A stretch of DNA of 64,000 nucleotides from Nemertoderma westbladi (GCA_032718475.1 JAUCBJ010003973.1:29077-93076), one strand, 5' to 3'. Positions 25,401 to 51,014 are shown, counted from the stretch's first letter. Translations and numbers: made by a program. The notes: generated from the sequence alone by a model not told the origin.

Positions 25401-26252
25401 CCGCTCCATGAAAACAGTAAGTAAGGCTGTTTTCACCAATCGAAATATAAAATATCTACAAACTATTTCTAAATTTACTGGTAGGGCCTAAAATATAAAA
25501 TATAATCACTATCTAATTATTGCATACTTAATATTGCAGATATGGCGTAAATACAATCGATCGTACATACAAATACAAATTTACTAATCAACTTTAGTGC
25601 CTAAAATACAAAAAAAAGGCTTTCGGTTATCAAGGTAAGCAAATTAAACAAATCAGAACAAATAAATCAAACAAATCAAACAAATAAATCAAACAAATCA
25701 AACAAATAAATCAAACAAATCAAACAAATAAATCAAACTCTTTTGATAAATCTTTATATATTGTAAATATACATAATAAACCTTCACCAAATTAAATCAA
25801 TCCAAATATAATATAAACACAATGCGCTAATAACTTCCAATAGTGTCTTAAAAGGTCCTCCTGACGAGCTTAAAAGTTCGTCCTGCTGGTCTGGATATCT
25901 TCTCCTGAGCACTAATTGCTAACGGTAGGCTCGCAAGCCTTCCTTTCCATATCTCGCTCCTCCAAACCCAACATTCAAACATAATGTCCAATATAAATAT
26001 CCAAATAAAATATCCAAATAAAATATCCAAATATAATATCCAAATATAATATCCAAATCGGTAGGCTCGCAAGCCTTCCTTCCACTCGCTTCCTATTCCT
26101 TCGCTGAGCGGGCTCGTCCACGTCCTCTAGTGCGATTGGGGGGTGGTCGAGGTCGAACTGGGCTCGGCCTTCGGCGTCGAGTCGTCGGTGGTTCCAAAAC
26201 GCTAGGAAAGGGGACGACGGGAGTTTCGCACATCCGTCGTGCGCTCAATCCT

Positions 26253-27893
26253 CTAAATCCTCGTCCGATTCCAACTGTCGACAACGCTAGGAGGAAGTCG
26301 AAAAGGTAGGACCGTTCCGTCCGTTGACACCTCGCTCTCTGACGTCGTTTGAATCCTAATGGGTTCAGTCAAAGCGTATCCTGTCCCTCCGCGTGGTTCT
26401 CTAGCAAGGGAAACCGTGCCCCGAGTCATCCGGATTTGCGACTTCGATGTCGTCCTCTCGGCGACATTCACTATCTTCTTAATCTCTTGTCCGGCCTTCT
26501 GGGCTTTGAGTATACGAAATTGCTGATCATCCTGTGGGTGACGCGTCTTCTCCGCTAACGGCGTGGCCTTGAAGCCAGTCTCACGCAAAACGTCGGTCTC
26601 GTCCAGAATGCACGAGGTTACGCGTTTGTGATAAAATGCGCTCCGGTATGCCCAAGCTATCGAATGCCAGGCTCCTCGATTCCGCTGTTCAACTCGCAGT
26701 TTATCGAATTCTCCGGCGGTAATCTTGTTCACCACAGTTTGAAAGTTCCAAGTATTCTTGTTGTCCGGGTGCACTTGTAAGAAATAGTCCCGCACAACTT
26801 TGAATCCACTGTCCAATGGCAATATATCCAATACCTCCAACAATTCATCGTACTGAGGCATAGCCGATACATATCCTTCCTTTGACATTATGAGAGGGTT
26901 TACGGCCCAAAATCCCAAATGTGCTCTCATAGGGAAGCGGCGTCGCTGCGTCGATACATGCTCGTCTGCTAGATCCTCCCAATGGTCGAATAATTGTCGA
27001 ACGATTTTAACTGACATGTGCTCATAGGGGACGTCTCTAAGTTGACATTCAGATGCCCTATGGCCCTTAATATTACAATAAGTACACTGCGCCACGAAAC
27101 GCCAGCAAGTGTAGAAAGTGTGCGAACGTTGATCCCCGCACCAGTTGCATACTAAATCCGGTAGAGATATGTGCTTCGCTCCGCACTTCTTTGCGTGATG
27201 GCCAGTTGCTCCACATCTGCCACAAATAGTGTTGGCAGGATACCAAACTCGCTCATAGATGAGGTCTCCGATGGGGCGAGCGCTACCGTCCACGTGATAA
27301 TTCTCATCATCCGGGTCAGTCGGTATGTTCGTCTCCGTAGGTTGTACACAAACCATGGCATCGCTTTTCTCTAACTCGCGTATCTCAGTTTGCGTCTTCC
27401 TTGGAAGGTTCTCTTCTATTTCTATGAGTTGCCGTAACGGTTCGTCTATTAGCGCCAACTCGGTCGGATCCACATCGTCATGATGGGCGGTAGGCTCGCG
27501 AGCCTTCCAGGATCCTTCCGGGCGTTCGAATTCCGCGTGGCGTTCCCCGTCATAGGGTACTAACGTTAACATCGACGGTCTGTCGACTAGACTTCCCGCG
27601 TGAGTGAGATAGACGTCCCTGAAAACGCTAAGTCCTGCTCGCGTGAAAACTTCGCAGTGCGCATCGGTGTTATAAAAGGGTTGGAGAAATCGTCGGAATA
27701 CATCAGTATGCGTCCTTCCTCCATCGTAAAAGGTATGTCCTTCGCCAAGACATAACGGGTGTCGCTTTAAGGTTCTGGATACTACGTCCGCGATGAAACA
27801 AACGTTAACCGAAGATTCTATCGCTAAATAGTATTGCAAGATTATCCGCGGAGGTGAAGTAATCGCCCAATACACGCAACCTCGCCACTTCAA
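26253..27893 (-). pseudogene. ORF3 C-terminal part: ExoIII-like motif and three CCHC zinc knuckles, frameshifted from the middle part
   Basis: YYLAIE; CGRCGATGHHAKKC, CNWCGDQRSHTFYTC, CTYCNIKGHRASEC; then FDHWEDLADEHVSTQRR...LGFW, matching FEEWADVGAMTRQR...WGFF in ORF 37413-39956. Confidence 0.75.
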
Positions 27894-29594
27894 CTGTGAC
27901 TCGACTCGTTTACGCCGGGGGTATCTCCCTCTCCGTATACGTCCGTGTATTTGTTCCTCTTACTCTCCTTGTAATCCCAACTGAACATTAGATATGAGAT
28001 ATAACCCGTCCCAGTTTTTAGCGTGTTATACTCTCTAAAGTATCCTTGCTCAATAGCCCAAAGCAACAATGGTCTAGTATCCACGTATGGCGTAGGCAAT
28101 CGGTCCTCTTCCGTGGGCATCCCTGCAAAGTCGCTAATGAGGTCATCCCGTACGCCGGATCCGATCTTGACGATGCTCTTATCCAACACAACGTCTCGCA
28201 CGGCCTTTGGCAACATCCTAGCTTCTATGCTACAAGCCAGGTCCATGGATTTAACTATCCGTTTTATCATCGCGTGTCTTTGCGTCGTTCCTTCCGGCAT
28301 AGGCATCTTCCTATCACTCCTCTGTCGGCTGAAGACATGCAACACGCCATCTGGTGCTCTAATCTGTATCGTCTTTGAAGTGAGGCTTTGCTGATGGCTT
28401 CCTCCTTCATTATCATAAAACATATATCCATTCTCTTTCAGAGATCGGCTAGTCACGTCCCAATCGTCGAGTAAATCGTCGGTAGGGTTCCAAATTCTCC
28501 CAATCGACTTTTCATCATCGAAACTAATAGGTTTACCAGTCCAATTGGTCGCGATATCGGTGTCGGTCTCAAACGTCCCAACTCCGATCCATAATCGAAT
28601 CGTTTTCGTCAGATATCCTCGCAAGATACAAGGTGCGATATCCGTCCCCGCGCGATCCACTTCCTTAACGTCCGTGATATGTGGAGGCACGTTGCGTACG
28701 ATTTTTTGAACTATTACTTTACGCAACTCGGTTGATTCTAACACATCACCGAAGGTGACCGATGGGAGGAAATCCAGGTTCGAGATGATCTCCGGGTGTT
28801 CAACTATAGGGATCTCGTAAGTTGTCTCCTTCCGGGTCGGTATACTAATAGGAAAACTAGTTGGTCTCGCAACCGGTACTATTGCTCCAGTAGAATGGGG
28901 CTGAGGTTCTCGCGTCATCTCAACGTGAGGTATCTGTAGTCTCTGCGACAAACGCTGAGCAAAGGTGATACTATCGAAGAGCTCGGGTGTCATCTCCTTG
29001 GGTTCGGTTTGATCGTGGGATATCCAATAGAATGGTAGGCTCGCGAGCCTTCCGCCGAACTCCTCGATCTCGCCTTTCTCGTACGCCTTGTACGCCCTGT
29101 AGAGGCTCAAAGCTTCCCGCTTCTCTTGTGTCGACTTATTAGACTCGTCCACTACCATGCTGTAGACGTCTGGTTCGACTAATTTTGGTTCGTAAATAAC
29201 GATCTCACCCGCGTTCGGTCCACTCATCTTAAATGAATGATACGGATTTGTCAAAGGGTATCCGCCTTCTTGGTAACGTAGACTTTGGTGGTGTGAACAT
29301 CGCGCTAATATCGGCTCGGGGTTCTCCGAGTTCAACCGCATAGGAATCGCGTTGTCTTGCTCGCGCATACACGCTCCACATTTATAAAACAGTTTGTATA
29401 CGGAAAACGCGTCCTTGGTCTCTGGATCCGCTCCTCGAGCGCGTCTATAAAGATGCATTCCTTCAAATTCGTCTCTAGCTGCAGGTAAAGGTTCGTTTAC
29501 CGTCAAATATTGCAGCGTATGATACAATCGGCGTATTTCGGTGTCTGGATCCTCGCAAATGTCGCTAGCGTCGCATAACGCATCGTAGGGATAT
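27890..29594 (-). pseudogene. ORF3 middle part: DEDDy-like 3'-5' exonuclease domain (ExoI and ExoII)
   Basis: GYMFYDNEGG (DxE), QIRAPDGVLHVF, LPKAVRDVVLDKSIVKIGSGVRDDL resemble WRN/EXD2/RNase D-family motifs. The first ~92 aa of the listed 661-aa ORF are only antisense LTR sequence. Confidence 0.75.
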
Positions 29595-29599
29595 AACGC

Positions 29600-30140
29600 T
29601 GTTAGCTTATTCAATCCCGCCAACACCCCATAAAGTTGTAAGCCGATAAGCAATATTGGGAGCCGCGAGATTGGGCAATTAACCAACTCGCGCCATCCCA
29701 ATAAGAGTGGGAAGGAAGCACACAATAGAGGGTCAGGGGCCAAACCCCTAACCCAGAGAGAACACAGTGGAGTGAACGGGAATACTCCACGGGGCGCCAA
29801 CAAGGGTATCAACCAATCAGAGGGGGGAATGGCATCGATTGAGTAGCAATTAGGCCAACCGTGCAGTATAGCCACTTGGCAGTAATATTACCTATTCAGT
29901 TATCACAGTGCAGCAGTGCTAGCGTAGGGTACAGCCAATTAGTTTAGTTAGGGGATCACGGGACTTTAGTTACCGTATCCCGCCTTGTACACATTTACAA
30001 TATATCCATATCTTATAACCTCCTATTATACACCGAACTTCAGAACTCAGTCACTTTATTTCATCCTTATACACGGCGGGGACGCGTGGACTAAATTACC
30101 ACAACCGGATAAATCGGGATCCCCCTTGGATCCCGTCACA
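29600..30140 (+). repeat. 5' LTR of copy B
   Basis: Direct repeat of 40667-41207; gtatag (about 29866) with an initiator-like TCAGTT about 30 bp downstream. Confidence 0.97.
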
Positions 30141-30245
30141 GTAACTAAATCGGTGCTGCTTCCCCAGCTAAACTCAGTAACTAAAGCCAGCTGCCGCCCT
30201 AGACAAACTCTATAAACACTAGCCACCGAAATCTGCAGAAGAGAG

Positions 30246-32774
30246 ATGAGCGATTCGGGCGAGACACCACCGCGGACCCCGGACGAAGACCTAACGATCC
30301 GCGAGGCCGCGACCAAACGATACAGGCCCACGACGCCGGAGCCATCGATAGTGGGCGGACCGGAAGTCGAGGATGAGGGGGGCCTGGAGCTCGAAGCCGA
30401 GCCAAGAGAAAGGGAGAGCGAGAAGGAGGGAGAAAGAGCGGAGTCGACACGGGACGGAGAAAGGCGCGCCGATGTCGCCGGCCAGCTACCGGCCGAGGGC
30501 GAGGAGCGGCCCACCGAAACGGTGACGGTGGGGCCGACGGTGCGACGCCGGACGCGAAGAGACGGAACAAAGATCGGTACCGATGTCGCCGGCCAGCTAC
30601 AGGCCGAGGGCGACGGACGGCCCACCGGAACGGCGACGGTGGAGCCGCCGGTACGACGTCGAACCCGGAGGGAGAGGGGAGAAGTCGGCGACGAGGACGT
30701 CGGGGTTTCTGAGCGACTCCGACGCGCTTACATCGCAACCCGGAGGGTACTAAACGATGCTAAGAAGAAAGGGGCGAAAGTGGACGAGGTGAGACTGAGG
30801 AAGCGACTAGGTGAGTCGGATAAACACTTTAGTTATCTAATACACTTTGAGCAGAGAGAGCTAGCCGAAACGAGGGCACATGAGATTGCCGTGGAACTAT
30901 TGGAACTGTGGGAGCGTGGGGGTATGGAACCTAGTGTAGGGCCAGTGTACATAGGGCCATACTCGGTCGATGCCCGGGGAATAAAACCGGTGGGTTGGAG
31001 GGGACTCGAAGGGGGCGAATCCGAGGTTAACTCCGAGGATTCGGCCTCGTCGGTCGGAGAAAGTTCCGGGAAGCGGGGGAGAGCCAGTGGGTCGGGAAGG
31101 CGGAGGGAATCCGTTACAACCGATAAGTCTGCTACATCCTCCGTAAAAGAAAGACGGGTGAGAGAGATAGAGGCCAGACACCGTCTCAATCTAGCGGTGG
31201 AAGCTAATAGAGAAGTAGGTAGACGGCTAGAGGAGGGGAGAGTGATGCTAGAGAGGGAAGCGGTGTCGATTAAAGAGTTAAGGGAAAGGGGCGAAAGGGC
31301 CGCGAGGAACCTTAGGGAGTATGACGAGATAGAGTTGAGGGAAGAGAGGGAACGTGAGGCGAGAAAGGAAAGTGAACGCAGGGAGCGTGAGGCGAAAGAG
31401 GAAAGTGAACGCAGGGAGCGTGAGGCGAGAGAGGAAAGTGAACGCAAAGAGCGTAAGGCGAGAAGAAGAGAGGGGATTGTGAGAGAGATGGAATTGGTCG
31501 AGCAGAGAGAACGGGAGTCTAGCGAGAGAGTAGCAAGGGAGGAGAGTGGCAGAATAGAGTTAGAGAAACGGCGAGAGAAACTCCTAGAGTATACAGCTGT
31601 ACACGCGCGCGATTTGGAACGGGCGCGGGCGGGAGTGTCTGAAAGCGGGGCCGGCTCGAGTATTTTTGAGGAGCCGAGGGCCGTAGATACATTTATTAAT
31701 GCCCCACTGACAGGGACCGCACGACAGACCCAGAACTGGTGTGACCGTACGGGCGGGGGGGGTAATAATAATGATGGTAAAGTAGGCGTTGTTAATATTG
31801 ATAATACCGTATGGGACAACACTAATCAAACCTTTATTGCAGGAAATACTTTACCTAGTGGTAGTAATTTAAATTTAAATCAGAACAATCCTAGTGTTAA
31901 TGTAGGAGATAATCCTAATATTGATGTAGTTACGCAAAATAATTCAAATAATCAAAATAATAATCCAAATTCGAACCTACAAAATAATTTAAATAACGCG
32001 ATCACGCAAAATAATTCGAATAATTTAAATAATGACCTAAATCCGAATTTACAAAATAATTCGGATAACGTGGCCGCCCAGAGTAATACAAACGATTTTG
32101 TTTTGGGCGAGCAAATTAATTCCGTTTCCAATATGGGTGTTATTAGTGTAGACACGTCGGGCCTACGTAACCAGGGAGCAGAGGGCCTGGTAGGCCACGT
32201 AGTTAGTAGACAGGGGGCAGAGGGCCTGGTAGGCCGCGTAGTTGGTAGACAGGAAGTAGAGGGCCTGGAAGGCCACGCAATAGCAGAGGGAGAGGCGGAG
32301 GTGAATAGACCCGACTGCGGTAGGGTTGATGTGTCGACTAGAGAGACATATAGTAGTGGGGCGAGAGGTAGCGAAGTTAGATGTAGCGAGTGGGGGGGGG
32401 CTACGAGCACCCCACGACAGAAAGTTAGCGGCGAGAGGGGGGGGGGGCAGAGAGTGTCCCACAGCCGTCAGCGGACAATGCGAGGGCCGAACAAGGTAAA
32501 CCGCAACAACCGGCGACGGAAAGTAATAAGGGGATTGCGAGTATCCCCAGCGGCGTGCGATCGAGCAGAGAAAGACAGGTTGACGTCGCGAGAGGGCAGA
32601 CGGAGCGTCGAGCCCGATCAGAGGAGGAAAGAAGAACAGTGGGGTTTAACCGGGAGGTCGACGAGAGATCTCGTGAGCGGGAATATTCCACTGATAGGAG
32701 AAGAGAGGAAGAGAGTAGTAGAAGTATCGCCGCAAACGATAGAAGAGCGAGGACGGACAGCGAGCCGTCGGTAG
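30246..32774 (+). CDS. N-terminal part of copy B Gag (Glu/Arg coiled-coil-like and Asn-rich segments); true frame probably shifts at the G11 run 32437-32447
   Basis: ATG 106 bp after the LTR; the homologous copy C reads ERGGAENVPQ...EEGRRTVEFNRE in one frame, matching the next ORF after this G run. Confidence 0.7.
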   Translation: MSDSGETPPRTPDEDLTIREAATKRYRPTTPEPSIVGGPEVEDEGGLELEAEPRERESEKEGERAESTRDGERRADVAGQLPAEGEERPTETVTVGPTVRRRTRRDGTKIGTDVAGQLQAEGDGRPTGTATVEPPVRRRTRRERGEVGDEDVGVSERLRRAYIATRRVLNDAKKKGAKVDEVRLRKRLGESDKHFSYLIHFEQRELAETRAHEIAVELLELWERGGMEPSVGPVYIGPYSVDARGIKPVGWRGLEGGESEVNSEDSASSVGESSGKRGRASGSGRRRESVTTDKSATSSVKERRVREIEARHRLNLAVEANREVGRRLEEGRVMLEREAVSIKELRERGERAARNLREYDEIELREEREREARKESERREREAKEESERREREAREESERKERKARRREGIVREMELVEQRERESSERVAREESGRIELEKRREKLLEYTAVHARDLERARAGVSESGAGSSIFEEPRAVDTFINAPLTGTARQTQNWCDRTGGGGNNNDGKVGVVNIDNTVWDNTNQTFIAGNTLPSGSNLNLNQNNPSVNVGDNPNIDVVTQNNSNNQNNNPNSNLQNNLNNAITQNNSNNLNNDLNPNLQNNSDNVAAQSNTNDFVLGEQINSVSNMGVISVDTSGLRNQGAEGLVGHVVSRQGAEGLVGRVVGRQEVEGLEGHAIAEGEAEVNRPDCGRVDVSTRETYSSGARGSEVRCSEWGGATSTPRQKVSGERGGGQRVSHSRQRTMRGPNKVNRNNRRRKVIRGLRVSPAACDRAEKDRLTSREGRRSVEPDQRRKEEQWGLTGRSTRDLVSGNIPLIGEERKRVVEVSPQTIEERGRTASRR

Positions 32775-35700
32775 TCGAGGTGAGAACGGAGAGTCAGTGG
32801 GGTCGGACTCCGGGAGATTGCCGTCGCCCCGGAGGGATGCGATCCGGTGAGACGCATTACACGTCGAGAGAGGGGTACGCGATGTACCGGTACGAAGATG
32901 AAAACAGTGGAGAGGGGGGTCGAAGAGAAACTTTCCGACGGAATATACCTACCGATCGAGAATACGGTAGCCGCGGGGAGGATTATTCGAGAAGAATAAA
33001 CTTCGATCCCGAGCAACATATGCAGACTGTAGGGCATACTGTAGGTCTTACTGCACATACCGTAGGCCATACTGAGAGAGGCAATGTAGGCGATAGGATA
33101 GCGCGGACAACGGGATTAAACCCGGAAGTCGCGGAATACATACCGGCGAGTAGGCCAGAAGCTGATAGGCCTATAGCGGTACCGGCACAGCAGTATGACT
33201 ACAGCATGCAGGGACATAACATATACCCAGGGGAGGGGGGAATTATTGCGGATAGGTGTATGGGCCCCAACATATTAACATCAACCCCAGTACCAAACAT
33301 ACCGGTGGGGGGGGGACAGGGTGACATTCCCCCATCACAATATCAACAATATACCCCAACAGGAACAAGAACAACGAGACCCCTAGATGAAAACAGGTCG
33401 TGTGATACAGACATATGGAGGGGGCCGCTACCCCCGATGACATATCCGAGTCAGAGAAGATCAAGAAATAGGACGGACGAACCGCACCAGACAGGGGAAA
33501 CTATACAGCACCCGTCGAATCCATTGGAAGCGCAGGCAATGGGGATGGCCACGTTGATCGATGCGTTGAAGACAAGGATCGAACTACCACCCGTGGAACC
33601 ATTCAAATTCGATGGGAGTAGGCCGGAAGAATACCTACAGTTTCGGCGAATGTATAGTAACGAAATACTAACAAAAAACTTGACGCAGGCGGAGTGCCTA
33701 AAGTATCTACAAGTGTACACGGGAGGCCCAGCATACGATATCGTGAGGCAATACCAGGGAATAGAGGGCGGCTTCACGACAGCATGGCGGGCACTGGATA
33801 GAGAATACGGGCACCCGGCCAAGATCATCAGGCAAACGCTGAGAGGCATAACATCGGGTGGCCTACAGGATAATCCCGTTAGCATTAAGACGTTTGCTAA
33901 CAAAGTCGAGAAGGCGCTGATCGTGCTGAAGACGCTAGACGCGCCATACGAGCTCAACGCGTCCAATAACATTACCACGATAGCGCAGGCACTACCGAGC
34001 TGGCTGCGCAACAAATGGAGGAAGATCGCTTTCTCCACCCGAGACAAGAAGGGTGCGGAACCAGGTTTAGAAGAAATGTCAAACTTCTTAAATTACGAGG
34101 CTGAACTAATAACGGACCCAGTCTATAGTGAAGATAGCCTGGGAAAGGCACCAAAGACAGATCACTACAGGCCCAAGCCAGAGCACAATACATCAAACGC
34201 ATTGCCGAGGCTCAGACAATCATTGCCATACGCAGCGACGCAGGGGACTACAAGTCCACAGACAAACGAAGATAAGACAACATCAAGGGACGGACAGGGG
34301 AACAATAACAACATAAATAAACATAACCCCAGTACGTCCAGTAGGCCAAACCCAGTCAATAAGAATAGTAGGGACTTTGGTACGAATATAACTGCAATAC
34401 GCAACGCATTGTATAAAGAGGGCTACGACCCAAAGAGCAAATGCCAGTTACACGCAAATGCGCTTCATAAAACCATGAACTGCAGGTACTGGCAGGCGCT
34501 ACCGAGGCAAGACCAGATAGATTACGCGTCGAGCAATAAAATCTGCTCGCGATGTGTAAAGAGTGGACACAAGGCCAGGGAATGCCAAGAGAAGCCGGTC
34601 AAGTTTGGCCAAAGGAGAGGCCAGACGATGGCAACGAGCACAGTAGGGGCGAAGAAGAGAGGAACAGTGCTACTTGGAATAGTACCAGTACGAGTGATCG
34701 GGGAAGGCAATCGATCAGTAACAACACTAATGCTGGTTGATAGTGGAGCTGCCTTCACACTAGTTGAGGAATGGATAGCCGAAGAAATAGGGTTGAGAAC
34801 GAGGCCAAGCAGGATGGCGGTGACAACCATCTCTAGCAAGGACGAGGTCCTAGAGATGAGGACAGGACGGTGCGCAATTGCAGCAGTGGCACCAGGATGC
34901 GATTATGGGGCAACCATCGACCCCATCCAAGTAATAGAGTCAATTAACATCAATGCCAGGCGGCCAACCAACATCGAGGTCGAGCAATACAAATTCCTGG
35001 ACAACATTGACTTCTCAATCCCAGACGTGGACGTTAGGAAGGTATCCATCATAGTAGGCATGGACTGCCCAACGGCCCACGAGAGAATGCAGACGGTCTT
35101 CGGCGAAGATAAGCAGAGCGACCCGGTGGCCATACTAACGCCATTCGGGTGGACGCTGACAGGCCCAATTAAGAGTAATATACCATTCCATGTGTCCGAG
35201 AGTTCAGGATGCATGGTGCCAGGAACTGACGAGATAGAGGAGAGGCCAGAGATGGGCAATAGTGGTAGACAGCTAGAAGTAGAAGCAACACCAAGAGAGT
35301 GGGCGGAGGAGAATGGTATGGATGCAGAAGATCTAGAGACGATGGGTTGGAATAAGGGTCCCAGCAAGTATCGGTATGGAGATGGGGAGCAGCGGACGGT
35401 GGAGTGTCGGGAGGACAAACCGGAGAAGTGCCCGGTGGAGTGTCCAGAGGAGCGCCCGGAAGAGACGCCGGTCCGGTTGAGAGGCATACCGACAAGGGGG
35501 AAGCCGAGTAAGAATACAAGATGGAAAGGGAAAGGATGTGAGACGATCAGACCAGGGGCAGAGAAACCCATGAATAAACATATGGTGGACAAAGGAGGCG
35601 GGAGAGTAGGAGGCGTGCTGCGTACGCACGCGGAACTGACAGAGTGCGAGGGGGCATTACATGGGCAGACGTCGTGTACACCGAAGGACGAACGGGGGTC

Positions 35701-36040: not shown

Positions 36041-36214
36041 AAGGTGCGGGCAGAGGTGTTACCTGTCTTCTAGAAGGGGCACCTTGAAGCGGAGTTAGAG
36101 TGAAGTTTAGTCGTCCAAATTTTGGACTGAGGGGGGTGGGATTGAGGGCGAGACGCCCTTCCCACACAAATAAAAATAAAAATAAAATAAAAATAATAGT
36201 ACATAGTAGGCAGA

Positions 36215-41207: not shown

Positions 41208-41437
41208 AACGCATTGTATTCCGCGCGTAATTCCTCCGTTCTTTTGTTGTATGCGTCCAACCGCTGTCGCGTAACATTCGGGTCCGCCTTGGATTTAGCG
41301 AGCTTGGCCGTACTCCTAGCCATACTCTCCACTCCAAACACACTAAAGTTTTTAGGTCCATAACGATTGAATGGCGCCTGGTGCTCCTGTTCTTGCGTAA
41401 ACCCTTGACGTAACTCTTTATACATCTTCTCCGCCAT
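41208..41437 (-). CDS. N-terminal 76 codons of ORF3 of the BEL/Pao element, cut off by the nested insertion
   Basis: MAEKMYKELR...RAEYNA joins in frame to LYPYDALC at 29594 once the insert and one AACGC copy are removed. Confidence 0.8.
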
Positions 41438-42170
41438 TGTATACGAATATATGCGGTTACATATCGTTACGTTTCTACTAGATGAAGCACAAAATAGAGG
41501 TTAGATGTGAGGTGACTTAGAGTTTGTCGGCTTTTGGCTCAACTCTGCTCTAAACCCCAACCCATTTTGCCTAATGATTTCGGGTTCGCGTGATTTCGCA
41601 CTGGCTCCTAATCCAAAAAATGTGCCGATAAAAAACGAATTCCGGGTAAACTAGCCGCGAGTCTAAAATACTCACCTTTTAATTTCCCAAACTACGTTTC
41701 CCAAGAAAATAATGCAGTCGAGAATTAATTGGTCAAAATAATAGTAGACACGACTACGTAGAACAAGACCGATTTTCTTTTTCCAAAAAAAATTTATCGG
41801 TAGGCTCGCAAGCCTTCCATCCGCTCTTGTCCTCCCCAATTTTAATTTTATCTAGCTGTATTCTAGAATTTGCTTTCACTGGAGAATCGTTTTTCTTAAA
41901 TTTAAATCCAAATAAATGGATTTGTCTAATAAATTTTGAAAAATTGTCTCACTTGTGGGTTCCAAGTGGAATTCCATTCCTACTGTACACACAATCCCGC
42001 TCCTATGTGATACATAAGGGTACTACCCTCCATGTTCACGTATAAAGACAATGGAATTCCACCGCTGTCTCTATCTACAGTGAAGAGGATTACAAATGCA
42101 CGTACAGTAATACAAATACAAATAACTAAAATACAGTAGGTCTATGTGGCGGCCAACAAAGGTCCCACAT

Positions 42171-45100
42171 CTATTTGCTAATATTGGGTGGAGATTTGTA
42201 GTCTCCCGTCTCGTTTCTAGTCTCCTCAAGGAGCACGAGACGTTGTACAGGTCTGTCTACGGTACGGCCGTCGATAGTCCGTACAGTAACTGTTCTCACT
42301 ATACCAGATGTAGGGTGCGTGGTCAAAATGACTCCAGTCAGCCAAAACCGTCTTCTCAGATTAGCTTCAGCCAATAAAACATGGTCACCACGTTTTAAAC
42401 ACCGGGTATTTAGATACCAGGAAGTTCTGGTTGAAATAGAGGGCAAATAATATTTCTGCCATATTTCCCAGAATTTATTTGCAAGTAATTGAGTGATTTT
42501 CCAAGCCTTGTTGCCGTATCCGTCACTATCAACGGGTACCGAAATGGGCAACAATGTCGTCGGCGCCTGCATAAGCAGGTGCGCTGGTGTCAAGGCAAAC
42601 TGTACGTCGTTATTGTCTGGGATCAAAGCGATCGGTCTGGTATTTAAGATTGCTTCGATTTCTATTAGTAACGTCGTCAGTTGGTCGTCTGTCAAGATGT
42701 GTTGCGTCGGTACGACTTTAGCCATAGCTGTCTTTATTGAGCCAATCAGCCTTTCCCAAACGCCGCCTCTCCACGGACTGTCTGGAGTATTGAAAAACCA
42801 AACAATACGGTGAGGACGTAGTTCCTCGGAAATCTGGTTTTGGTCCAATTTTCTCAAAGCTCTGGTTATCTCGTTCCGTGCACCCACAAAGTTTGTCCCT
42901 TGGTCGCAGTATATGGATTTGACCAATCCACGTCTAGCGATAAATCGCCGTAAGGCTAGGATAAAGGCATTGGTGGACAAGTCTGTCACTCGCTCTATAT
43001 GGACAGCTCTGCTGGCCATGCAGGTGAAGATCAATCCCCAACGTTTTACCTGTACCCTTCCGCGTTTCGCGATTATGGGTCCAAAACAGTCTATCCCTGT
43101 CTCAGTGAAAGGGGGTCTAAACGCCTGTAATCTCGCTAATGGTAGTTCACTCATTTCTTGGTGTCCTATCCTCGCGTGCACCTTCTTACAAATAATACAG
43201 TTCCGTGTTACCGAACTCAGTGCCTTACTAGGTCTAATCAGTACAAACCTCGAGCGTAAGTGTGATAGACAGTGGTGTCTACCTACGTGTTTGAGTTGTA
43301 CATGTGCGTCCAGTATCATAGCGCGCTGTAATTCATGGTGTTGCGGTATGATGATAGGATACCTAAAGTCAAGTGCAAAGTCGATGTTTTGGAGTCTGGA
43401 CTTGTGACAAAGTAAGCCCCGGTAAATAATCGGACTCCAACTCAAAATCGGTGAAGACTTAATCTGTTTACCTTGTTTGATCGCTGTGAACTCTCGTGCG
43501 AAATATCGCAATTGATAATGTCGAATGATATCAACTTCACAGTGGCCAATTTCCTTTAAGGTAAGTCTTCTAGGAAAGTCGCGTTTGCCTCTGGCATATT
43601 GTCTCAATCGTTTGAGCCATGCTAACTTGCGGCACGCGTCAGTCCATGATCTAGTTAGGTTTACTATCCTGTCAACGTAAGTGTTAGTGACGTCATCGGG
43701 TAAGGTGTAGTCGTAATGTGGATACTTGTCTGGACTTGGTAGGCCCACGGGCCTTCCGGTAGGTTTGTCTGAGTCCCCAAGTACGTCAATCTCTACGGTC
43801 TTACCTTTGCCGTCCGCACCTAATGTGTCGACTGGCAGTAATGGTTTCAACTCTACAGTGTCAGTGTGTTCCTGTGAGCCTGTAAGCTTCCTAACCTTAG
43901 TCACACGCTTACCTGTAGGTAAGTCAAGTACCTTCTTCGAGCGGAGTGTAATCCCTGTGGCCACATCTCTGTCGTCCAAAGAAGTCAAATTCGGTACGTC
44001 TCTAAAAGTCCGCTCCAATGGGTCTTCTAATGGAGTGTCTAGTAGACAGTCTGGTGAAGCGTCTGGTGAACAGTCTGGTGAGACGTCTGGTGAGACATAG
44101 CGCGGAACATCCGGCGAAATGTCCGGTCGTCGGTCCCAAAGTCTGTCTAGCGTAACTTCCGTCAGAAAGTCTGGTTCAAAGTCTGGTGGACAGTCGGTCG
44201 AGATGTCTGGTGAACAGTCTGGTGAGACGTCCGGTAGACATTCTGTCGAGAGTTCCATCAAACAATCTGGCGAAGAATCCGGAGAACAATCTGGTGTCTC
44301 TTCTGGTGAATAGTCTGGCGAGTAATCTGGTGAACAATCCGGCGAAACGTCTGGTGAAATCTCCCGCGGAACATCCGGCGAAGGATTCATACAAGCGTCT
44401 GGTCGAGTGTCTGGCGAGACGTCTGGCGTAATGTCAGGTCTGGCGTCCAGGTCATCAGATTTCGTCCGTCCTTTTTTCCTCTTGACCTTGGCGTTGGCTT
44501 TCGCTTTAGACTTGACAACCTTGTCGAGTTTTATCTCGGCACCCTCTGGTATGGTGTTGGTTGTCGCGTCGAATAACGGTGGCCATTCGTCTGATGGTCG
44601 CTGTAGGAAATCGGGTCCTCTAAACCAAAAGGATTTATTGTCCGGTTTACAAAAGTCAAGTGGTTGCATCCCCCGTGACGCGATGTCAGCTGGGTTCAGC
44701 TTCCCTGGACAGTGACGCCAATCTTGTTTGAGCGACCGGTCTAATATTTCAGCCCGTCTGTTGGCTACGAAAGTCTTGAACTCAAATGCTTCGTTGTTTA
44801 TGTACCAAAGTACCAACGTCGCATCCGTCCAATATGTGACCTTCAAGTTAGCCTCCAGCTCGCGTTGAACTAGACTGACAATATCGGTGGATATCGTCCC
44901 GGCTTGCAGCTCCCCACGAGGTACAGTCATATACTTCAATGGCATTGTTCTAGCCCTTGAAGTAACGAGAGATACATCGTAGCTGTCCGATGTCACTTGT
45001 CGTCTAAGGTATAAAGTAACCCCCAATCCATCCTTGCTAGCGTCACTAAAGCTGTGAAGCTCTAAATCGGCAGGAAAGGTGGTTTGCAAAGGAAAGTATA

Positions 45101-48100
45101 CCCTCGGTATGGTATAGTCTTGTAGGAACGTCAGTTGGGCTTCCCAGTCCCTCCATCGCTCAGCTAACTTTTCTGGGATGGGATCGTCCCATTCCAGTCC
45201 GGCTTGCCAAATGCTGCGGAGTATGATCCTGGCATGTAGGATCACTGGACTAATGAAACACAATGGGTCATACAATCGACTCATGGTCGATAAGCAAGTC
45301 CTCTTTGTGAGAGGTCTAGTCTGGTCGTTGGACCTTACACGTACCCTAAAATTGTCGGTGTTAGGGTCCCAACTAAGTCCTAATACTTTGGTCGTCGGCT
45401 GAGGTTCTAGGTCTAAGTCCAAGTCACCTCCGCTACGATCCGTCGGGTCAAATGAGTTCAACAGTTCGGGTTCGTTGGAAGCGAACTTCGTCAGGTGAAA
45501 TCCGCCCTCAGCGAGACAATCCTGGAGTTGGTGTGCTACGGTTGTAGCGCGCTCCAAGGTGTCACAACTCTTGAGGCCGTCATCCACGTAGAAATCTCGT
45601 TCCACGGTCCGAACTACTTCTGGGTCAAATTGGTCTCGTCTGTCTAATGCTGTCTGCTTCAATGCGTACATGGTGCAGTTGGGGCTGTCCCTGGCTCCGA
45701 ATACTCTTACCTGCATTTGGTAAGTTTCTGGCGGAAGTTGTAAGTTTCCGTCCGGATACCAAAGAAACCTCAAACTGTCCCTGTCCCGCTCCAAAGCCTT
45801 AATCTGGTGAAACATGGCCTCTACGTCACAGGTGAAAGCCACTTTGCGTTGTCTAAAACGCATTAGGACTCCCATGAGGTAATTATTCATATTCGGCCCG
45901 TCCATCAGTTCGCTATTCATAGACATCCCTTGGTAAAGCGCAGCGCAGTCGTTGACTACACGCACCTTGCCAGGTTTGTCCGGGTGTCGAACAAAATGAT
46001 GTGGCAGGTAATATGTCTGGTCTGTAGTTACCTCAGGATTTAACATCCTAATGGCGTATCCCTTTTGGAGATACGTCTGAAGTTGTGCGTTGTATTGCAT
46101 ATGGGCCGTCTCGTCTCGCAACAATCGCTGCCTTATTGATTTGAGTCGCCTCAAAGCAAGCGGGTAATTGTTAACGAGCTTAGGTTGTCCATTGCACCAC
46201 AACATACCAACCTCATAGTGGCCATTCGCGGTCTGGCGAATGGTATCTCTCATAATATTTAATGACCGTTTTTCCTGTTCTGACATAGCGGTCTCGTAAC
46301 TACCGGGTTCTGCTGAGTCCTGTTCCAACCATTGTATGGTCCGTTCAGTCAGCAGTCGGTCAAGCGCTGCTTGCACTGCGCCATGGTCCTCGTCCACGTC
46401 TTCGTCCGCTGCGGTGGCTAGTGTCAATGTGTCTGGTAGGCTCGCAAGCCTTCCGGTGTCACTAGTCGGCGTCGAATTGTCGTGCGGCGGTTTGACAACC
46501 TTTTGATCTGTCAGTAGGCTCGCAAGCCTTCCAAGATCAACGACCGGTGTCGAAGCCTGGTGGGTGGGGTCAATGACCTTCGGATTTTTCGGTAGGCTCG
46601 CAAGCCTTCCAAAATCCTCGTTCATCGAGTCATCCACGGCAACAACCCTTTGGCCTTCAGTAGTCAATACAACCTGGTCTACTGCAAGTAGTTGTAAGTC
46701 AGAGGTCCGTATGGTCGTGTCCAGATCGGTTACGTCAGTATCGGTGGCGTCTGCGTTAGTGACGCAAGTCTGTCGTAGTGCCGTCCGTACAATTGGACCA
46801 TGGGAGTGTGAAGGAGAATTATCTATCGTGTTAGTCAATAAACTACACGTACTTAAAACGTCGTCCTCCTGGTCACTTACCTCTAGTGAACGTATTGGTG
46901 CTCTAGTATACCAACCTATGGGAGTTCTACATGCGTAGGGGTTGCCCGCTGTAATAACAGATGGGCGTGTCTCCCATACCTGATGTAAGTTAAACTGGTC
47001 TGTCCCAATTAACATCGCAATGGAACGATAATTGACAGGACATTCCGGTATTCCAAGGTGTCGGAAATACTTACGATCTTCCGGTGATTGCTCTGGCACA
47101 GGGCCGAGCAAGTTACTAAAGTCCTTCGTAGCTGCAAAGGTCAAAATTCTTACCGGAAGTAATGAACGCTCCTCCTTGCTGTGTTCCGCTTTGGAAAGAA
47201 GAGTGTCTAAAGTTAGTTTTACTCTCGTCACAGGAATCGCTCTCTTACCATGCATGCTGCTTACAGTATACTGAGCAGTCTTACCTTGACTCAAGTCCGT
47301 AACTACGTCGGCTACTTGTTCGTCGACATAGCTATGCGATGACGCAGAGTCTAAGATGGCGTATATACGCTTGCTCCCTCGGGTTCCGGTAATCTTTATA
47401 GGAATCACGCTAAACCCTTTCAATTGGTTCTGTGTGAGGAGCGTTATCGATGGCTGTTCCTCACCTGCATGCACGTAGAAAGTGTCGTCTTCCTCCTCGT
47501 CCTCGTCCGATGATCCTGACTGATCCATACAGTCGGTATAAAAGGTACGGATCTCGCGCGGCGCACGCTCCTTATAAAGCGCGTCGCATCTAGCCGCTTT
47601 ATCGGGATGCTCTCGTCGAAAGCGTCTGGTCGGAGTATGACTGGTTGTGTGAAGCAACGCGTCATGGTTACGTCCACACAGAGAACATGTATCGTCGCTC
47701 GGGCAATCCTTCCGGACGTGTCCTGGCTTCATACATCTCCAACAGGAATCTAGAGATCGGATTTGGAGTCTCCTCTTCTCGATCCCTAACTCTTTAAAAG
47801 CGCGACATCCACGTAGTTTATGTCCGCTATGGTTTCTGCCGTTCCGCTCGCAGTATGAGCATCCCACAAAGTCCGCCGGCAACTGTTGTCGTGGCTGCGT
47901 GGTGCCTATAGGCGTCAGAACTTTAGAAGTCTCAGTAGGGGTGGCGTAAGTAACGGCTTTCGCGTTCGTCGGAAACGGTTTAGTCCGATTCGGCGCAGAA
48001 ACAGTTATCCCTTCCGCCGCGATATGGTGATCGGTATAGTTCGATCGAGTCTCGATCACGGCCTCCCGTGAAATAAGTTGATAGACATCGGTGAGTTTTA

Positions 48101-48779
48101 ATAACCCTCCGGCCTCTTCACGCTGGTACTCGATGCGTCGCCATTCTCGTCGTAGTCGATGATGAAGTCGACCGATTATTCGAATGAGAACCGTCGGTGC
48201 GTTAGCGTACTCGAGTTGTCCAATGGACCGTAAAGTCCCTATAGCGTTCTTTATTTCGTCCGCGAGTCGTAGAAGGTCGATCGGTCTCGAAATGTTGCCT
48301 CCTCTGCAGAGGTCTTCAATGATGGATTTAGCCATGGCGACATTACCGCCGTAAATCGAATACAAAAGGTCGTACGCCAACTCAAAGGCATCGGGAACTC
48401 CAATAAAGGTTTCCGCTAATCGTTTCGGCTCACCAGACAGGACTTGGAGCAAGTAGTTAAACTTCTCCGTCGAGGTGAAAGCACACTTAGCGATCTGGGA
48501 CTCTACGTAGTCTACCAGTGTGCGCCAGTGTTTCGCGTTGCCAGAGAACTTCGGCGGTTGCTGTGCCGGTAATCCGTGTCTAGCCGCGAATTTCGCAATC
48601 TCGCTAACTAAATCCAACTGTCCGCGTCCCTGTTCGGCGGCGTCGTCCAGTCGCTCCCTTCCGCGCGTTGTTCGTCGGTAGGAATTATTAACGGGATCTT
48701 CTTCTCGATGTGTCGGAGTCCGTCTAGTCTCCTGTTCTCTCCTCGGTGGTCGATGTTGTCTAGGTTGTTCCAACTCCAC
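42171..48779 (-). CDS. pol: BEL/Pao Gag core, aspartic protease, reverse transcriptase, RNase H and integrase (2202 aa)
   Basis: PPKFSGNAKHW gag motif; three Cys/His clusters including CWRCMKPGHVRKDC; AILDSAS protease; DVEAMFHQI and FYVDDGL RT; HSFSDAS RNase H; H..H/CIIC, IDCFGP, CDQGTNF, GGVWERLI integrase. Confidence 0.97.
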   Translation of the reverse strand: MELEQPRQHRPPRREQETRRTPTHREEDPVNNSYRRTTRGRERLDDAAEQGRGQLDLVSEIAKFAARHGLPAQQPPKFSGNAKHWRTLVDYVESQIAKCAFTSTEKFNYLLQVLSGEPKRLAETFIGVPDAFELAYDLLYSIYGGNVAMAKSIIEDLCRGGNISRPIDLLRLADEIKNAIGTLRSIGQLEYANAPTVLIRIIGRLHHRLRREWRRIEYQREEAGGLLKLTDVYQLISREAVIETRSNYTDHHIAAEGITVSAPNRTKPFPTNAKAVTYATPTETSKVLTPIGTTQPRQQLPADFVGCSYCERNGRNHSGHKLRGCRAFKELGIEKRRLQIRSLDSCWRCMKPGHVRKDCPSDDTCSLCGRNHDALLHTTSHTPTRRFRREHPDKAARCDALYKERAPREIRTFYTDCMDQSGSSDEDEEEDDTFYVHAGEEQPSITLLTQNQLKGFSVIPIKITGTRGSKRIYAILDSASSHSYVDEQVADVVTDLSQGKTAQYTVSSMHGKRAIPVTRVKLTLDTLLSKAEHSKEERSLLPVRILTFAATKDFSNLLGPVPEQSPEDRKYFRHLGIPECPVNYRSIAMLIGTDQFNLHQVWETRPSVITAGNPYACRTPIGWYTRAPIRSLEVSDQEDDVLSTCSLLTNTIDNSPSHSHGPIVRTALRQTCVTNADATDTDVTDLDTTIRTSDLQLLAVDQVVLTTEGQRVVAVDDSMNEDFGRLASLPKNPKVIDPTHQASTPVVDLGRLASLLTDQKVVKPPHDNSTPTSDTGRLASLPDTLTLATAADEDVDEDHGAVQAALDRLLTERTIQWLEQDSAEPGSYETAMSEQEKRSLNIMRDTIRQTANGHYEVGMLWCNGQPKLVNNYPLALRRLKSIRQRLLRDETAHMQYNAQLQTYLQKGYAIRMLNPEVTTDQTYYLPHHFVRHPDKPGKVRVVNDCAALYQGMSMNSELMDGPNMNNYLMGVLMRFRQRKVAFTCDVEAMFHQIKALERDRDSLRFLWYPDGNLQLPPETYQMQVRVFGARDSPNCTMYALKQTALDRRDQFDPEVVRTVERDFYVDDGLKSCDTLERATTVAHQLQDCLAEGGFHLTKFASNEPELLNSFDPTDRSGGDLDLDLEPQPTTKVLGLSWDPNTDNFRVRVRSNDQTRPLTKRTCLSTMSRLYDPLCFISPVILHARIILRSIWQAGLEWDDPIPEKLAERWRDWEAQLTFLQDYTIPRVYFPLQTTFPADLELHSFSDASKDGLGVTLYLRRQVTSDSYDVSLVTSRARTMPLKYMTVPRGELQAGTISTDIVSLVQRELEANLKVTYWTDATLVLWYINNEAFEFKTFVANRRAEILDRSLKQDWRHCPGKLNPADIASRGMQPLDFCKPDNKSFWFRGPDFLQRPSDEWPPLFDATTNTIPEGAEIKLDKVVKSKAKANAKVKRKKGRTKSDDLDARPDITPDVSPDTRPDACMNPSPDVPREISPDVSPDCSPDYSPDYSPEETPDCSPDSSPDCLMELSTECLPDVSPDCSPDISTDCPPDFEPDFLTEVTLDRLWDRRPDISPDVPRYVSPDVSPDCSPDASPDCLLDTPLEDPLERTFRDVPNLTSLDDRDVATGITLRSKKVLDLPTGKRVTKVRKLTGSQEHTDTVELKPLLPVDTLGADGKGKTVEIDVLGDSDKPTGRPVGLPSPDKYPHYDYTLPDDVTNTYVDRIVNLTRSWTDACRKLAWLKRLRQYARGKRDFPRRLTLKEIGHCEVDIIRHYQLRYFAREFTAIKQGKQIKSSPILSWSPIIYRGLLCHKSRLQNIDFALDFRYPIIIPQHHELQRAMILDAHVQLKHVGRHHCLSHLRSRFVLIRPSKALSSVTRNCIICKKVHARIGHQEMSELPLARLQAFRPPFTETGIDCFGPIIAKRGRVQVKRWGLIFTCMASRAVHIERVTDLSTNAFILALRRFIARRGLVKSIYCDQGTNFVGARNEITRALRKLDQNQISEELRPHRIVWFFNTPDSPWRGGVWERLIGSIKTAMAKVVPTQHILTDDQLTTLLIEIEAILNTRPIALIPDNNDVQFALTPAHLLMQAPTTLLPISVPVDSDGYGNKAWKITQLLANKFWEIWQKYYLPSISTRTSWYLNTRCLKRGDHVLLAEANLRRRFWLTGVILTTHPTSGIVRTVTVRTIDGRTVDRPVQRLVLLEETRNETGDYKSPPNISK
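44035..44450 (-). repeat. In-frame 12-bp-unit repeat in pol encoding (x)SPD units
   Basis: PDVSPDCSPDYSPD... lies between the RNase H and integrase motifs. Confidence 0.9.
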
Positions 48780-48815
48780 GCTGGTCCGTGATCGATCCGA
48801 CGGTTGCGCTTCGAG

Positions 48816-51014
48816 TCATTCTTCGAGTTGAGCTATTCTGTCCGTCATCTCGGTGAACTGTTTAGCGCTGATCGTTTCCGCTGGTTTCAACGTGGGTTTC
48901 TGTTGGGGTGTTTCTCGTGGAGGATTGTCGATATAGGGATTCGTCGACCTCTCCTCTCGTTTGTAATCTTCCGCCGCTCCAGTACGGAATATTTCCCGTT
49001 CCGTCGACTCCGAGTCACTAGATGAGTCGCTATCGTCCGGATAAGGTGGTTGGCGGGTTCGTGTCCGGCGTATTATCCTTGGTCGAGTTCGTTGTGATCT
49101 GGGATCTACGGCTCTCCGTTGTTCGGCAGGCTCGCAAGCCTTCCACGAAGTCGTAGGTCTCGTTAAACATTGGGTGAGAGGTCTAGTAAAAACATCGGAG
49201 TTAAGCTCTATTGTAGGTTTATAAATGACTGGGTTCGCGCAGCACGTCACAGGTTTAACTTGTAATGGTTTACTCACCTGTTTTACTGTCATAAACGCAG
49301 GTTCGTCTCTCTCTACAAGTAAACTACGGCTTACAGTAGGTGGACTACTTATCTTACCTGCTAAAATTGGCGATGAAGTCGCCCTAGGTTGCGGTATTTC
49401 CGTCATAACAAACCTGTTGCCTTGCGTCGAATGCACAGGCGTTATTTCCTTAGGTTTCGTAACAAAGACCGGTTTTATCGGAGTCGTGGGTTTGAGCATA
49501 GGAATAACTTGGGGAAAACGTTTACAGTAATCCTCGATGAACTCCTCTCCTCGATCTATCGCTCCCACGCTTCCTTCCTCGATCCGCTTCTGTATTCCGC
49601 GATATCGAGCTTCCATACGATCCAGGGCAGACAAGTCGTGTCCAGTTCGCGATCTTATAGATCTATCTCTCGCGTCGAGTTCGAGGTCCGCTTGCGCGAT
49701 CGCTGTCTCGCGCGATCTACGATTCAATTCGAACTGTAGTTGCATCTCTCTTTCGCGTCGATCTGCATCCTGTTGTTGTGCCGCTAACTCCGCTTCCTGT
49801 ATAGCTAAACGAGCGTTTATTTGTCGCGCCTCCAACTTGGCACGAGCGTCGGATGCTGCTTTCTTCCGTGCTAACTCAGCTGCGTTTACCGCCGCAACTC
49901 GTGCTAGCTCGTCAGCCGCTGCCTGTCGTGCTAGCTCGTCAGCTGCTGCCGCCTGTCGTGCTAACTCGTCGGCTGCTGCCGCCGCGGCCGCTTCTCGCGC
50001 TAAGTCCTCCTCCAGTCTCCGCATCTCTGATGCTTCGAACTCAGCCTGCGCTTGAAGTTTCGCAAGTTTCGCTACGTCCTCTCTGCGCTGTTTTTCTCCT
50101 TCGATGGCGATCTGTGCCATCTGTAGTTGCGCTTCTTCCTCGGCGACTTGTTGTCGGCGTGCGACCTCCTGTTGTTGTCGAATAATTACAGACGCTGTTC
50201 TACTAACGTCGCCAACGTCGCCAACGTCGCTCCGTACGCTAACGAACGATCTATCCAGTGGTGGATGTTGGTAGGCTCGCGAGCCTTCCGTAGTGAGAAC
50301 TTCCGTCGTCCCTCGCGGTTCGACTTCCAGTTCGTCGATCGGTACGCCGCATCTACGAAGAAAATTGGTCAGCGTTTCCAACCTTCCGTCCAGGCAGTAG
50401 AGTTCTTCTTCCTCTTCGGGTTGTAACAACGCGTCCGAAACTGACTCACCTAGCAGTTGGTCGAACTGCTCCTGTTGAGCCAATCTTATCACAGACTTAA
50501 ACTGGATAAGGCTTTCTCTCGCACTTACCAATTTATCTACTATCTTTACCTGAGTAAAGTTGTCGCCACGCAACTCTGCAAGTTCGTGCAAACCTTTAAG
50601 TTTATCTACGGAGGCATGTACCCTACTTTCTATCCTTACCTGTAAGGTGTAGAACTCGTATCTCGACATCGGGGCGGTTAACTCGCGTAAAACGCGAAAA
50701 CCTTCTCCGAGGTTCCGAGTAATCTGGACCATGTGTCCTCCTATACTTCTAATAACGTTCTCCTGGCTTCCAGTCGAACTTACCATGTCCGGTTCCCGCG
50801 ATCTAGTCTGCGGGACGGTAAGGAAATCTTCGATTCTGCCGTCGCCACGCATTGCGATTTCCGGTATTTCCGTTCGGGGTACCGGCGACGCAAGCGGTGT
50901 GACATCGGTGGAATCTCGGGTTCTCCTTCTCGGTTCGTCTACTGTCGATCTGTCCGGGTCGCACGAGTCATAGTCGGTAGGTGGGTATCTCGTCGAATGG
51001 GGTGTGTCACTCAT
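48816..51014 (-). CDS. gag: N-terminal part of the BEL/Pao Gag-Pol polyprotein (732 aa, long Ala/Glu/Arg coiled-coil-like region)
   Basis: First long ATG ORF after the 5' LTR; in the same frame as 42171-48779 and separated from it by a single TGA. Confidence 0.75.
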   Translation of the reverse strand: MSDTPHSTRYPPTDYDSCDPDRSTVDEPRRRTRDSTDVTPLASPVPRTEIPEIAMRGDGRIEDFLTVPQTRSREPDMVSSTGSQENVIRSIGGHMVQITRNLGEGFRVLRELTAPMSRYEFYTLQVRIESRVHASVDKLKGLHELAELRGDNFTQVKIVDKLVSARESLIQFKSVIRLAQQEQFDQLLGESVSDALLQPEEEEELYCLDGRLETLTNFLRRCGVPIDELEVEPRGTTEVLTTEGSRAYQHPPLDRSFVSVRSDVGDVGDVSRTASVIIRQQQEVARRQQVAEEEAQLQMAQIAIEGEKQRREDVAKLAKLQAQAEFEASEMRRLEEDLAREAAAAAAADELARQAAAADELARQAAADELARVAAVNAAELARKKAASDARAKLEARQINARLAIQEAELAAQQQDADRREREMQLQFELNRRSRETAIAQADLELDARDRSIRSRTGHDLSALDRMEARYRGIQKRIEEGSVGAIDRGEEFIEDYCKRFPQVIPMLKPTTPIKPVFVTKPKEITPVHSTQGNRFVMTEIPQPRATSSPILAGKISSPPTVSRSLLVERDEPAFMTVKQVSKPLQVKPVTCCANPVIYKPTIELNSDVFTRPLTQCLTRPTTSWKACEPAEQRRAVDPRSQRTRPRIIRRTRTRQPPYPDDSDSSSDSESTEREIFRTGAAEDYKREERSTNPYIDNPPRETPQQKPTLKPAETISAKQFTEMTDRIAQLEE

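Follow-up and report, generated by a model that had tools for sequence, protein, structure and literature searches.

A repeated 20-nucleotide hairpin motif in a BEL/Pao retrotransposon of Nemertoderma westbladi as a candidate RNA tag for the element's own zinc knuckles

INTRODUCTION

A 64,000-nucleotide stretch of the Nemertoderma westbladi genome (GCA_032718475.1, JAUCBJ010003973.1:29077-93076; hereafter, the window) harbors a BEL/Pao retrotransposon on its minus strand, bounded by long terminal repeats (LTRs) and measuring ~19.5 kb without a nested gag-protease element of 11.6 kb. The LTRs agree at 2288 of 2293 aligned bases, and the element is young. It encodes open reading frame 1 (ORF1), for which no Pfam match was found; ORF2, which specifies a capsid-like DUF1759 domain, zinc knuckles, Peptidase_A17, a reverse transcriptase (RT)/RNase H region, an integrase with a zinc domain, and DUF5641; and two overlapping frames, ORF3a and ORF3b. 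A preliminary description, made from the sequence alone, had reported a 20-nt hairpin motif scattered through this element. Here, we propose, with about an even chance of being right and by analogy with known viral systems, that the motif is a dispersed, element-specific RNA tag on which the element's own zinc knuckles would dock for packaging.

RESULTS

A motif confined to the interior of one element

Scanning both strands of the window revealed 11 copies of the motif and no further match at up to three mismatches. Eight copies are exact, those at 46513 and 49125 carry one mismatch each, and that at 43738 carries three, which bears out the eleven same-orientation copies and the variants of the preliminary description. 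All 11 lie on the sense (minus) strand of the BEL/Pao element and are confined to its 14.9-kb interior, the other 49 kb of the window holding none; in 100 dinucleotide shuffles, the mean number of matches at up to three mismatches was 0.01. A covariance model built from the 11 copies and searched over the 64 kb with filters off gave them minus-strand scores of 33.5-39.3 bits. The best other score, excepting the copies' own reverse strands, was 9.2 bits; therefore, the window contains neither a twelfth copy nor a decayed relic. The same search found the motif absent from the LTRs and the nested element, as had been claimed, and also from the flanks. A de novo k-mer search identified the motif as the sole dispersed repeat of the element interior, and it detected no analogous dispersed motif in the nested and neighboring gag-protease elements, short G/C runs aside. 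The motif's boundary lies one extra base per side beyond the 20 nt. Signs of a genome-wide micro-repeat or mini-element were missing from the window, with no outside copies, copies in opposite orientation, target duplications, or decayed relics.

Because copies 3 to 5 (Table 1) follow each other at a 78-nt period and copies 10 and 11 lie 136 nt apart, the 11 copies form eight clusters. These are spaced at 1.1-2.8 kb with a coefficient of variation of 0.34, which is more even than random placement (p = 0.006; p = 0.012 when conditioned on gaps >200 nt), and the first copy lies 1.65 kb into the interior, within ORF1. An Rfam 15 scan of the window gave no match over the gathering threshold. Exact-motif scans elsewhere returned no match in viral contigs, where no related loci with DNA were found, two single matches in metagenome contigs, and two in bacterial genomes. 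An origin from bacterial repetitive extragenic palindromic (REP)-like sequences was rejected, as ~2.2 bacterial-genome matches are expected by chance and each locus has a single site.

Table 1. Positions in the window of the hairpin copies and of the main features of their host element
Feature	Position	Strand	Remarks
Hairpin copy 1	50270..50289	-	Loop CGCG, flank C.A; ORF1, phase 2
Hairpin copy 2	49125..49144	-	Loop UGCG, mismatch A.G, flank U.G; ORF1, phase 1
Hairpin copy 3	46591..46610	-	Loop UGCG, flank U.G; first of the 78-nt-period triple, protease-RT interval
Hairpin copy 4	46513..46532	-	Loop UGCG, basal pair G-U, flank U.G
Hairpin copy 5	46435..46454	-	Loop UGCG, flank C.A
Hairpin copy 6 (variant)	43738..43757	-	Closing pair C-G for U-A, loop CGUG; RNase H-integrase insertion
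Hairpin copy 7	41799..41818	-	Non-coding spacer, ORF2-ORF3a
Hairpin copy 8	29034..29053	-	Loop CGCG, flank C.A; ORF3a, phase 0
Hairpin copy 9	27489..27508	-	Loop CGCG, flank U.G; ORF3b, phase 1
Hairpin copy 10	26060..26079	-	3' untranslated region, flank A.G
Hairpin copy 11	25924..25943	-	3' untranslated region, flank A.G
BEL/Pao LTR retrotransposon	23103..54228	-	TG...CA ends, 5-bp target-site duplication
5' LTR	51936..54228	-	2293 bp, no motif copy
3' LTR	23103..25400	-	2298 bp, no motif copy
ORF1	48819..51017	-	733 codons stop to stop, ends in in-frame TGA; copies 1 and 2
ORF2	42174..48815	-	2214 codons; four motif copies
Nested gag-protease element	29600..41207	+	Identical 541-bp LTRs, 5-bp duplication; interrupts ORF3a; no motif copy
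ORF3a, 3' part	27893..29594	-	5' part at ~41213-41437; copy 8
ORF3b frame	26256..27959	-	Three Cys/His knuckle-like motifs; copy 9

Constraint at the nucleotide level

Three copies are non-coding and eight are coding, the latter spread over three reading phases in which the motif is read as GRLASL (four copies) or GRPVGL in phase 0, WKACEP or WKAREP in phase 1, and EGSRAY in phase 2; therefore, the motif is not protein-driven. The GRLASL copies share a codon set whose probability is ~1e-4 per copy under ORF2 codon usage. When ORF2 was aligned with 22 of its 120 listed homologs, three of its four copies fell in columns without residues from any homolog and the fourth bordered such an insertion, low-identity windows holding 32% of ORF2 residues, and no motif-derived peptide occurred in the 120 listed polyprotein homologs. 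The earlier argument that protein selection is insufficient to explain the copies was thus upheld by the phases and non-coding copies, the ORF2 insertions, and the shared codon set. The same description had placed copies in gag, pol, and ORF3 as well as in spacers. The phases and the non-coding copies agree with this placement, whereas the two supposed gag copies actually belong to ORF1, which is closed by an in-frame stop downstream of them; DUF1759, the capsid-like domain, is encoded in ORF2, as are the knuckles.

Between units 1 and 2 of the 78-nt tandem, the motif is identical at 19 of 20 positions and the spacer at 32 of 58 (55%; Fisher p = 7e-4). Unit 3 was excluded from this test because its spacer (18-19/58, chance level) may be non-homologous. 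The constraint on the motif acts at the nucleotide level, and the tandem suggests that copies arise through local duplication and that selection afterwards keeps the motif alone. From copy to copy, the flanks show mostly no relationship, and nine of the 11 lack a flanking direct repeat of at least 3 nt. Further elements of the family were compared in four of the seven listed runs; no RNA run was among those listed, which says nothing about expression. The family is large and diverse, with 15,740 and 7,237 contig records in two DNA runs and identity classes of sister contigs from 99+ down to <90%. Low-depth contigs of two runs skip approximately one 78-nt unit at 46533-46614 (joint skipping, 80 nt); therefore, the number of tandem motifs varies among sister elements. 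None of the 40 listed of 852 variable places among sister contigs falls in a motif copy, a comparison without power as only ~0.5 would be expected.

A neutral origin has to be weighed against these patterns, with the motif marking a micro-insertion or template-switch hot spot spread by RT, recently homogenized and devoid of function. RT can stall at hairpins, template switching yields direct orientation, and the copies are located where insertions are tolerated. However, decayed copies are absent from the window, the tandem spacer has drifted while its motif has stayed almost unchanged, flanking direct repeats are lacking at most copies, the spacing is more even than random, and the variants preserve the stem described below. 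We consider a neutral by-product very unlikely.

Predicted hairpin and its variants

In the predicted fold (~-9 kcal/mol), a 1x1 mismatch separates 2 bp from a further 5 bp capped by a tetraloop. Over the eight distinct rows, pairing is intact at all seven stem pairs (56/56 cells), so that all variants retain the hairpin with internal mismatch that had been described. The stem changes comprise one double change (U-A to C-G) and one change from G-C to G-U, which preserves pairing on the sense strand only; all further variation is restricted to the mismatch and the loop. Every copy has a YGYG loop in which neither G changes (11/11), and seven copies have UGCG. The bases just outside the stem are U.G in five copies, C.A in four, and A.G in two, are never Watson-Crick (0/11), and covary (permutation p = 0.003; p = 0.008 without two neighbor copies). 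U.G and C.A form similar wobble geometries, and both are present within the tandem triple. Decay of CpG was rejected as an explanation for the variation between C and U and between G and A: CpG observed/expected in the interior is 1.2-1.33, not depleted, and independent decay would also yield Watson-Crick flank pairs, which are absent here. A resemblance to the histone stem-loop was likewise rejected, stem length and loop being different. Across the interior (25401-29599 and 41208-51935), 99 perfect stems of at least 5 bp were counted, against 62 +/- 8 in 20 Markov resamples, an excess only partly due to the motif copies.

The same symmetry could be that of a near-palindromic DNA site for a dimeric element or host protein, similar to the VANDAL/VANC system of Arabidopsis and spread by tandem duplication. 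As DNA, the motif consists of two 10-bp inverted half-sites, folding is symmetric between strands, and the 78-nt array together with copy-number variation among sister contigs fits tandem spread. VANC motifs, too, are family-specific, form single-orientation arrays, and are multiplied in tandem repeats (PMC5735166), and VANDAL elements likewise carry an accessory gene. However, neither the double change at the closing pair, nor the lack of single changes that break the stem, nor the anti-correlation between flank bases is expected of a palindrome. The LTRs, the seat of transcriptional control, are without copies, and domain searches of ORF1, ORF3a, and ORF3b found no DNA-binding domain. VANC motifs are 9-bp, non-coding, and dense (PMC5735166); they are also non-palindromic, belong to a DNA transposon, and show no pairing constraint. 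A DNA site of this kind therefore seems quite unlikely to us.

The hairpin might alternatively be read by a host factor for transport, export, or protection from decay, or mark internal sites of plus-strand priming. Transposon RNAs can use stem-loop readers such as Egalitarian (PMC13186709), and, for priming, purine-rich runs precede the non-coding copies and the even spacing would be suitable. Egalitarian signals, however, require a pair of helices, each at least 6 bp long, and 3' bulges (PMC13186709), whereas the hairpin here has 2+5 bp and a symmetric mismatch, and the Rfam scan gave no match to a known RNA. Primers of the polypurine-tract type do not form hairpins, and no purine run precedes the coding copies. 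Both roles appear highly improbable.

Complementary loops

A point missed in the preliminary description is that the three loops, UGCG, CGCG, and CGUG, are mutually complementary through G-C and G-U pairs. The copies could hence be RNA-RNA contact sites whose loops kiss and convert to 20-bp duplexes, with two packaged genomes zipped in register or one RNA compacted, nucleocapsid serving as chaperone; such contacts may coexist with protein docking. Among 256 loops compared on an unchanged stem, the three hold ranks 4, 15, and 20 for self-dimer energy (-19.7, -15.5, and -13.0 kcal/mol; median, -4.2), and in both clusters of close neighbors, copy-to-copy duplexes are more favorable than local hairpins (by 5.8 and 5.5 kcal/mol). 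Any-to-any pairing would explain a uniform stem sequence and not merely pairing. Precedents exist in the palindromic kissing loops of retroviruses, which convert to extended duplexes, in the GACG tetraloops of murine leukemia virus (MuLV) (PMC5874298), and in the kissing loops of Ty1 (PMC5454406). DIS/SL1 of HIV-1, MuLV GACG, and Ty1 SL1a-SL3a share with the motif a self-complementary loop, a short stem, a destabilizing mismatch, and an extended duplex, predicted in our case.

Several observations nevertheless speak against RNA-RNA contact. About one in seven tetraloops is self-complementary by chance when wobbles are counted, and just two independent loop changes are at hand. The loop complementarity spans no more than 4 nt and includes G-U pairs. 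The commonest loop, UGCG (7/11), kisses less strongly, pairing between the variant copy and the other copies is poorer (-7.4 to -10.1), and the covarying flank pair is easier to read as a local hairpin feature. Known dimer signals are concentrated at the 5' end (PMC5874298), as one to few different hairpins and not as a genome-wide repeat. We regard such contact sites as unlikely. An extension of the idea, in which a genome-length zipper would replace the single 5' packaging or dimer signal, with the loop G offered to knuckles and complementarity linking two genomes, is in our view equally doubtful. Nucleocapsid would then turn docking sites into RNA-RNA links and bring the genomes into register for packaging and template switching.

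Reading frames and surroundings of the host element

ORF2 has 1367 homologs, the best ~46% identical in the RT region. A TGA at 48816-48818, followed by C, stands in frame between ORF1 and ORF2, upstream of the capsid-like domain. The 40 listed of the 852 sister-contig differences include several letters private to the present copy but not this TGA, and readthrough may be possible.

Knuckle-like motifs do occur in ORF3b, as the preliminary description had it, one of them with a Pfam zf-CCHC score (E ~0.001) that falls short of the curated cut-off; its single "ORF3," however, is two overlapping frames in the present copy. Homolog searches found no detectable homolog of ORF3a or ORF3b. The C-terminus of ORF3a (27780-28480, minus strand) bears a weak resemblance to the 3'-5' exonuclease domain of the EXD2/WRN type. 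It was the best of 313 window frames (E = 0.041) when these were compared with a profile of 120 bacterial EXD2-type exonucleases, scoring 9.1 bits as compared with at most 4.4 in 1000 shuffles. An atlas match of 0.84 to PF01612 clusters is a lead only, as are all atlas matches below 0.9. No Pfam or PDB match was found for this C-terminus, and its single-sequence structure model (mean predicted local distance difference test, pLDDT, 29) was unusable. An ExoIII-like segment was seen by eye in the overlapping ORF3b frame. ORF3a and ORF3b may represent one gene for an exonuclease-like domain plus three knuckles, with the frame broken in this copy; DEDDy-type ORF3s have a precedent in LTR elements of bdelloids (PMC5408684).

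No TGG-type tRNA primer-binding site was found directly after the 5' LTR, and a tRNA scan of the window made no call. The first 10 bases after the 5' LTR (51926-51935, minus strand) are complementary to an intra-LTR site at 53200-53209; the complementarity ends exactly at the LTR boundary, and such a complement was found for 0.2% of interior 10-mers. This pairing may serve for self-priming, loosely like that of Tf1. A tRNA-like stretch, not called as a tRNA, occurs in the upstream part of the LTR at 54020-54090 and 25190-25260 (minus strand), with an A-box at 54085 and a B-box at 54034, and the two LTRs differ within it. Shortly past CA, inside the LTR at 53516-53550 (minus strand), lies a TGGTCC-led stretch resembling a relic primer-binding site, and the LTR looks as if it had been enlarged by capture of an older leader.

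Elsewhere in the window, three related gag-protease elements, 69-85% alike, lie at 17225-19537 (+), 29600-41207 (+, the nested element), and 58591-62700 (-); they contain no hairpin copies, and no RT match was found in the frames scanned. A 12-nt PDxS-coding repeat is common to these elements and to the RNase H-integrase insertion of the BEL/Pao element (44014-44450). At 4099-8780, terminal inverted repeats of 440 bp (94%) bound an element with 10-nt tandem arrays between them, and a separate RVT_1 fragment lies at 9578-10528.

DISCUSSION

Docking of the element's own zinc knuckles, to which we give about an even chance, would involve the following steps. The motif would fold in the element RNA as a small hairpin closed below by a non-Watson-Crick pair, and a zinc knuckle would bind the exposed loop G, as the nucleocapsid of Rous sarcoma virus (RSV) does on a UGCG loop. 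Many sites at 1-3-kb intervals would provide avidity and condense an RNA of ~15-17 kb, and the hairpins would tag the long genomic RNA for selective packaging. Copies would multiply by local duplication, after which flanks would drift and the motif would be retained. The closest precedent is stem-loop C (SL-C) of the RSV micro-psi signal, whose tetraloop is recognized by the N-terminal knuckle of nucleocapsid. Retroviral knuckles contact exposed loop guanines (PMC7599994), and in the UGCG loop of SL-C, the second base, G218, is exposed, contacted by nucleocapsid, and important for Gag specificity in vitro (PMC7291142). The element shares the UGCG loop in seven of 11 copies, has an invariant G at the nucleocapsid-bound second position in all 11, and encodes CCHC knuckles. 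The RSV signal differs in being one loop in a three-way junction of the 5' leader, whereas the element has 11 free-standing predicted hairpins over 13 kb, eight of them coding and most closed by U-A, known from sequence alone.

Dispersed packaging signals are known in single-stranded RNA (ssRNA) viruses and hepatitis B virus (HBV) (PMC6281560, PMC8472981). In MS2, satellite tobacco necrosis virus (STNV), parechovirus, and HBV pregenomic RNA, as in the element (where structure is predicted), many short stem-loops with a shared motif are distributed genome-wide, coding regions included, and spacing matters in those systems. Unlike the element's nearly invariant 20-mer, however, those signals are variable apart from a short recognition motif, and capsid protein binds them. 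Two sets of knuckles could serve as readers. The knuckles of ORF2 (Gag) would be the likelier reader, and those of ORF3b would be a second candidate, whose role would then be export or marking of the ribonucleoprotein (RNP) and not packaging. An accessory export protein would have a precedent in CERV (PMC10309623). Cer1 of Caenorhabditis elegans, which encodes CERV, and the bdelloid elements with a DEDDy ORF3 resemble the present element in being LTR elements with an accessory protein possibly acting on their own RNA, ORF3a itself being weakly DEDDy-type-like, as in the bdelloid LTR elements. They differ in being Ty3/gypsy-type, and no passage on a repeated hairpin or a CERV cis-element was found in the parts of those papers cited here.

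Several points weigh against docking for packaging, the first of them concerning structure. The flank-pair test was post hoc, that offset being one of 10 examined, and formal covariation is no better than in shuffles, with a single double-change pair and 272 of 500 shuffles scoring as high. The upper stem reaches a probability of at least 0.84 in six of 11 sense contexts against at least 0.90 in seven of 11 antisense contexts, folding energy is near equal on the two strands, and only one of the 11 60-nt windows beats all 200 shuffles. Four of the five close-neighbor copies are predicted to pair mutually and not to fold locally. Other points concern function. The 5' leader, home of retroviral psi signals, holds no copy; four to five copies would also sit in any ORF3 subgenomic RNA, which weakens the case by lowering packaging selectivity; and dispersed packaging signals of viruses vary far more than these copies do. 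The 4-nt loop match to RSV can be due to chance, and the SL-C loop of RSV is secondary for packaging in cells (PMC7291142). Because the flank test is post hoc, formal covariation is weak, and folding is strand-symmetric, an RNA reading of the motif is favored but not proven. The preliminary suggestion of a multivalent RNA signal therefore stands in part: nucleotide-level constraint, the retained stem, the knuckles in ORF2 and ORF3b, and the precedent of a UGCG nucleocapsid loop agree with it, whereas the shared orientation of the copies is not RNA evidence, because tandem-duplicated DNA motifs, as in VANDAL, share orientation too.

The way in which LTR retrotransposons select their RNA and condense it is ill defined, Ty1 and Ty3 included. 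For these two, packaging sequences lack a clear definition and a contribution from scattered sites is probable, with sites beyond the main packaging region suspected though unmapped (PMC4974528). In the literature on LTR-element RNA signals that we searched, with subscription journals mostly outside it, neither a hairpin repeated along an LTR element, whether BEL/Pao or other, nor any RNA cis-signal for BEL/Pao elements surfaced. The sharply bounded, near-invariant motif, its compensatory variants, and two candidate reader domains together offer a directly testable system. If the proposed docking is true, it would constitute a new pair of small RNA tag and protein, would extend the logic of dispersed packaging signals from ssRNA viruses to retrotransposons, and would suggest how giant elements cope with the length of their RNA.

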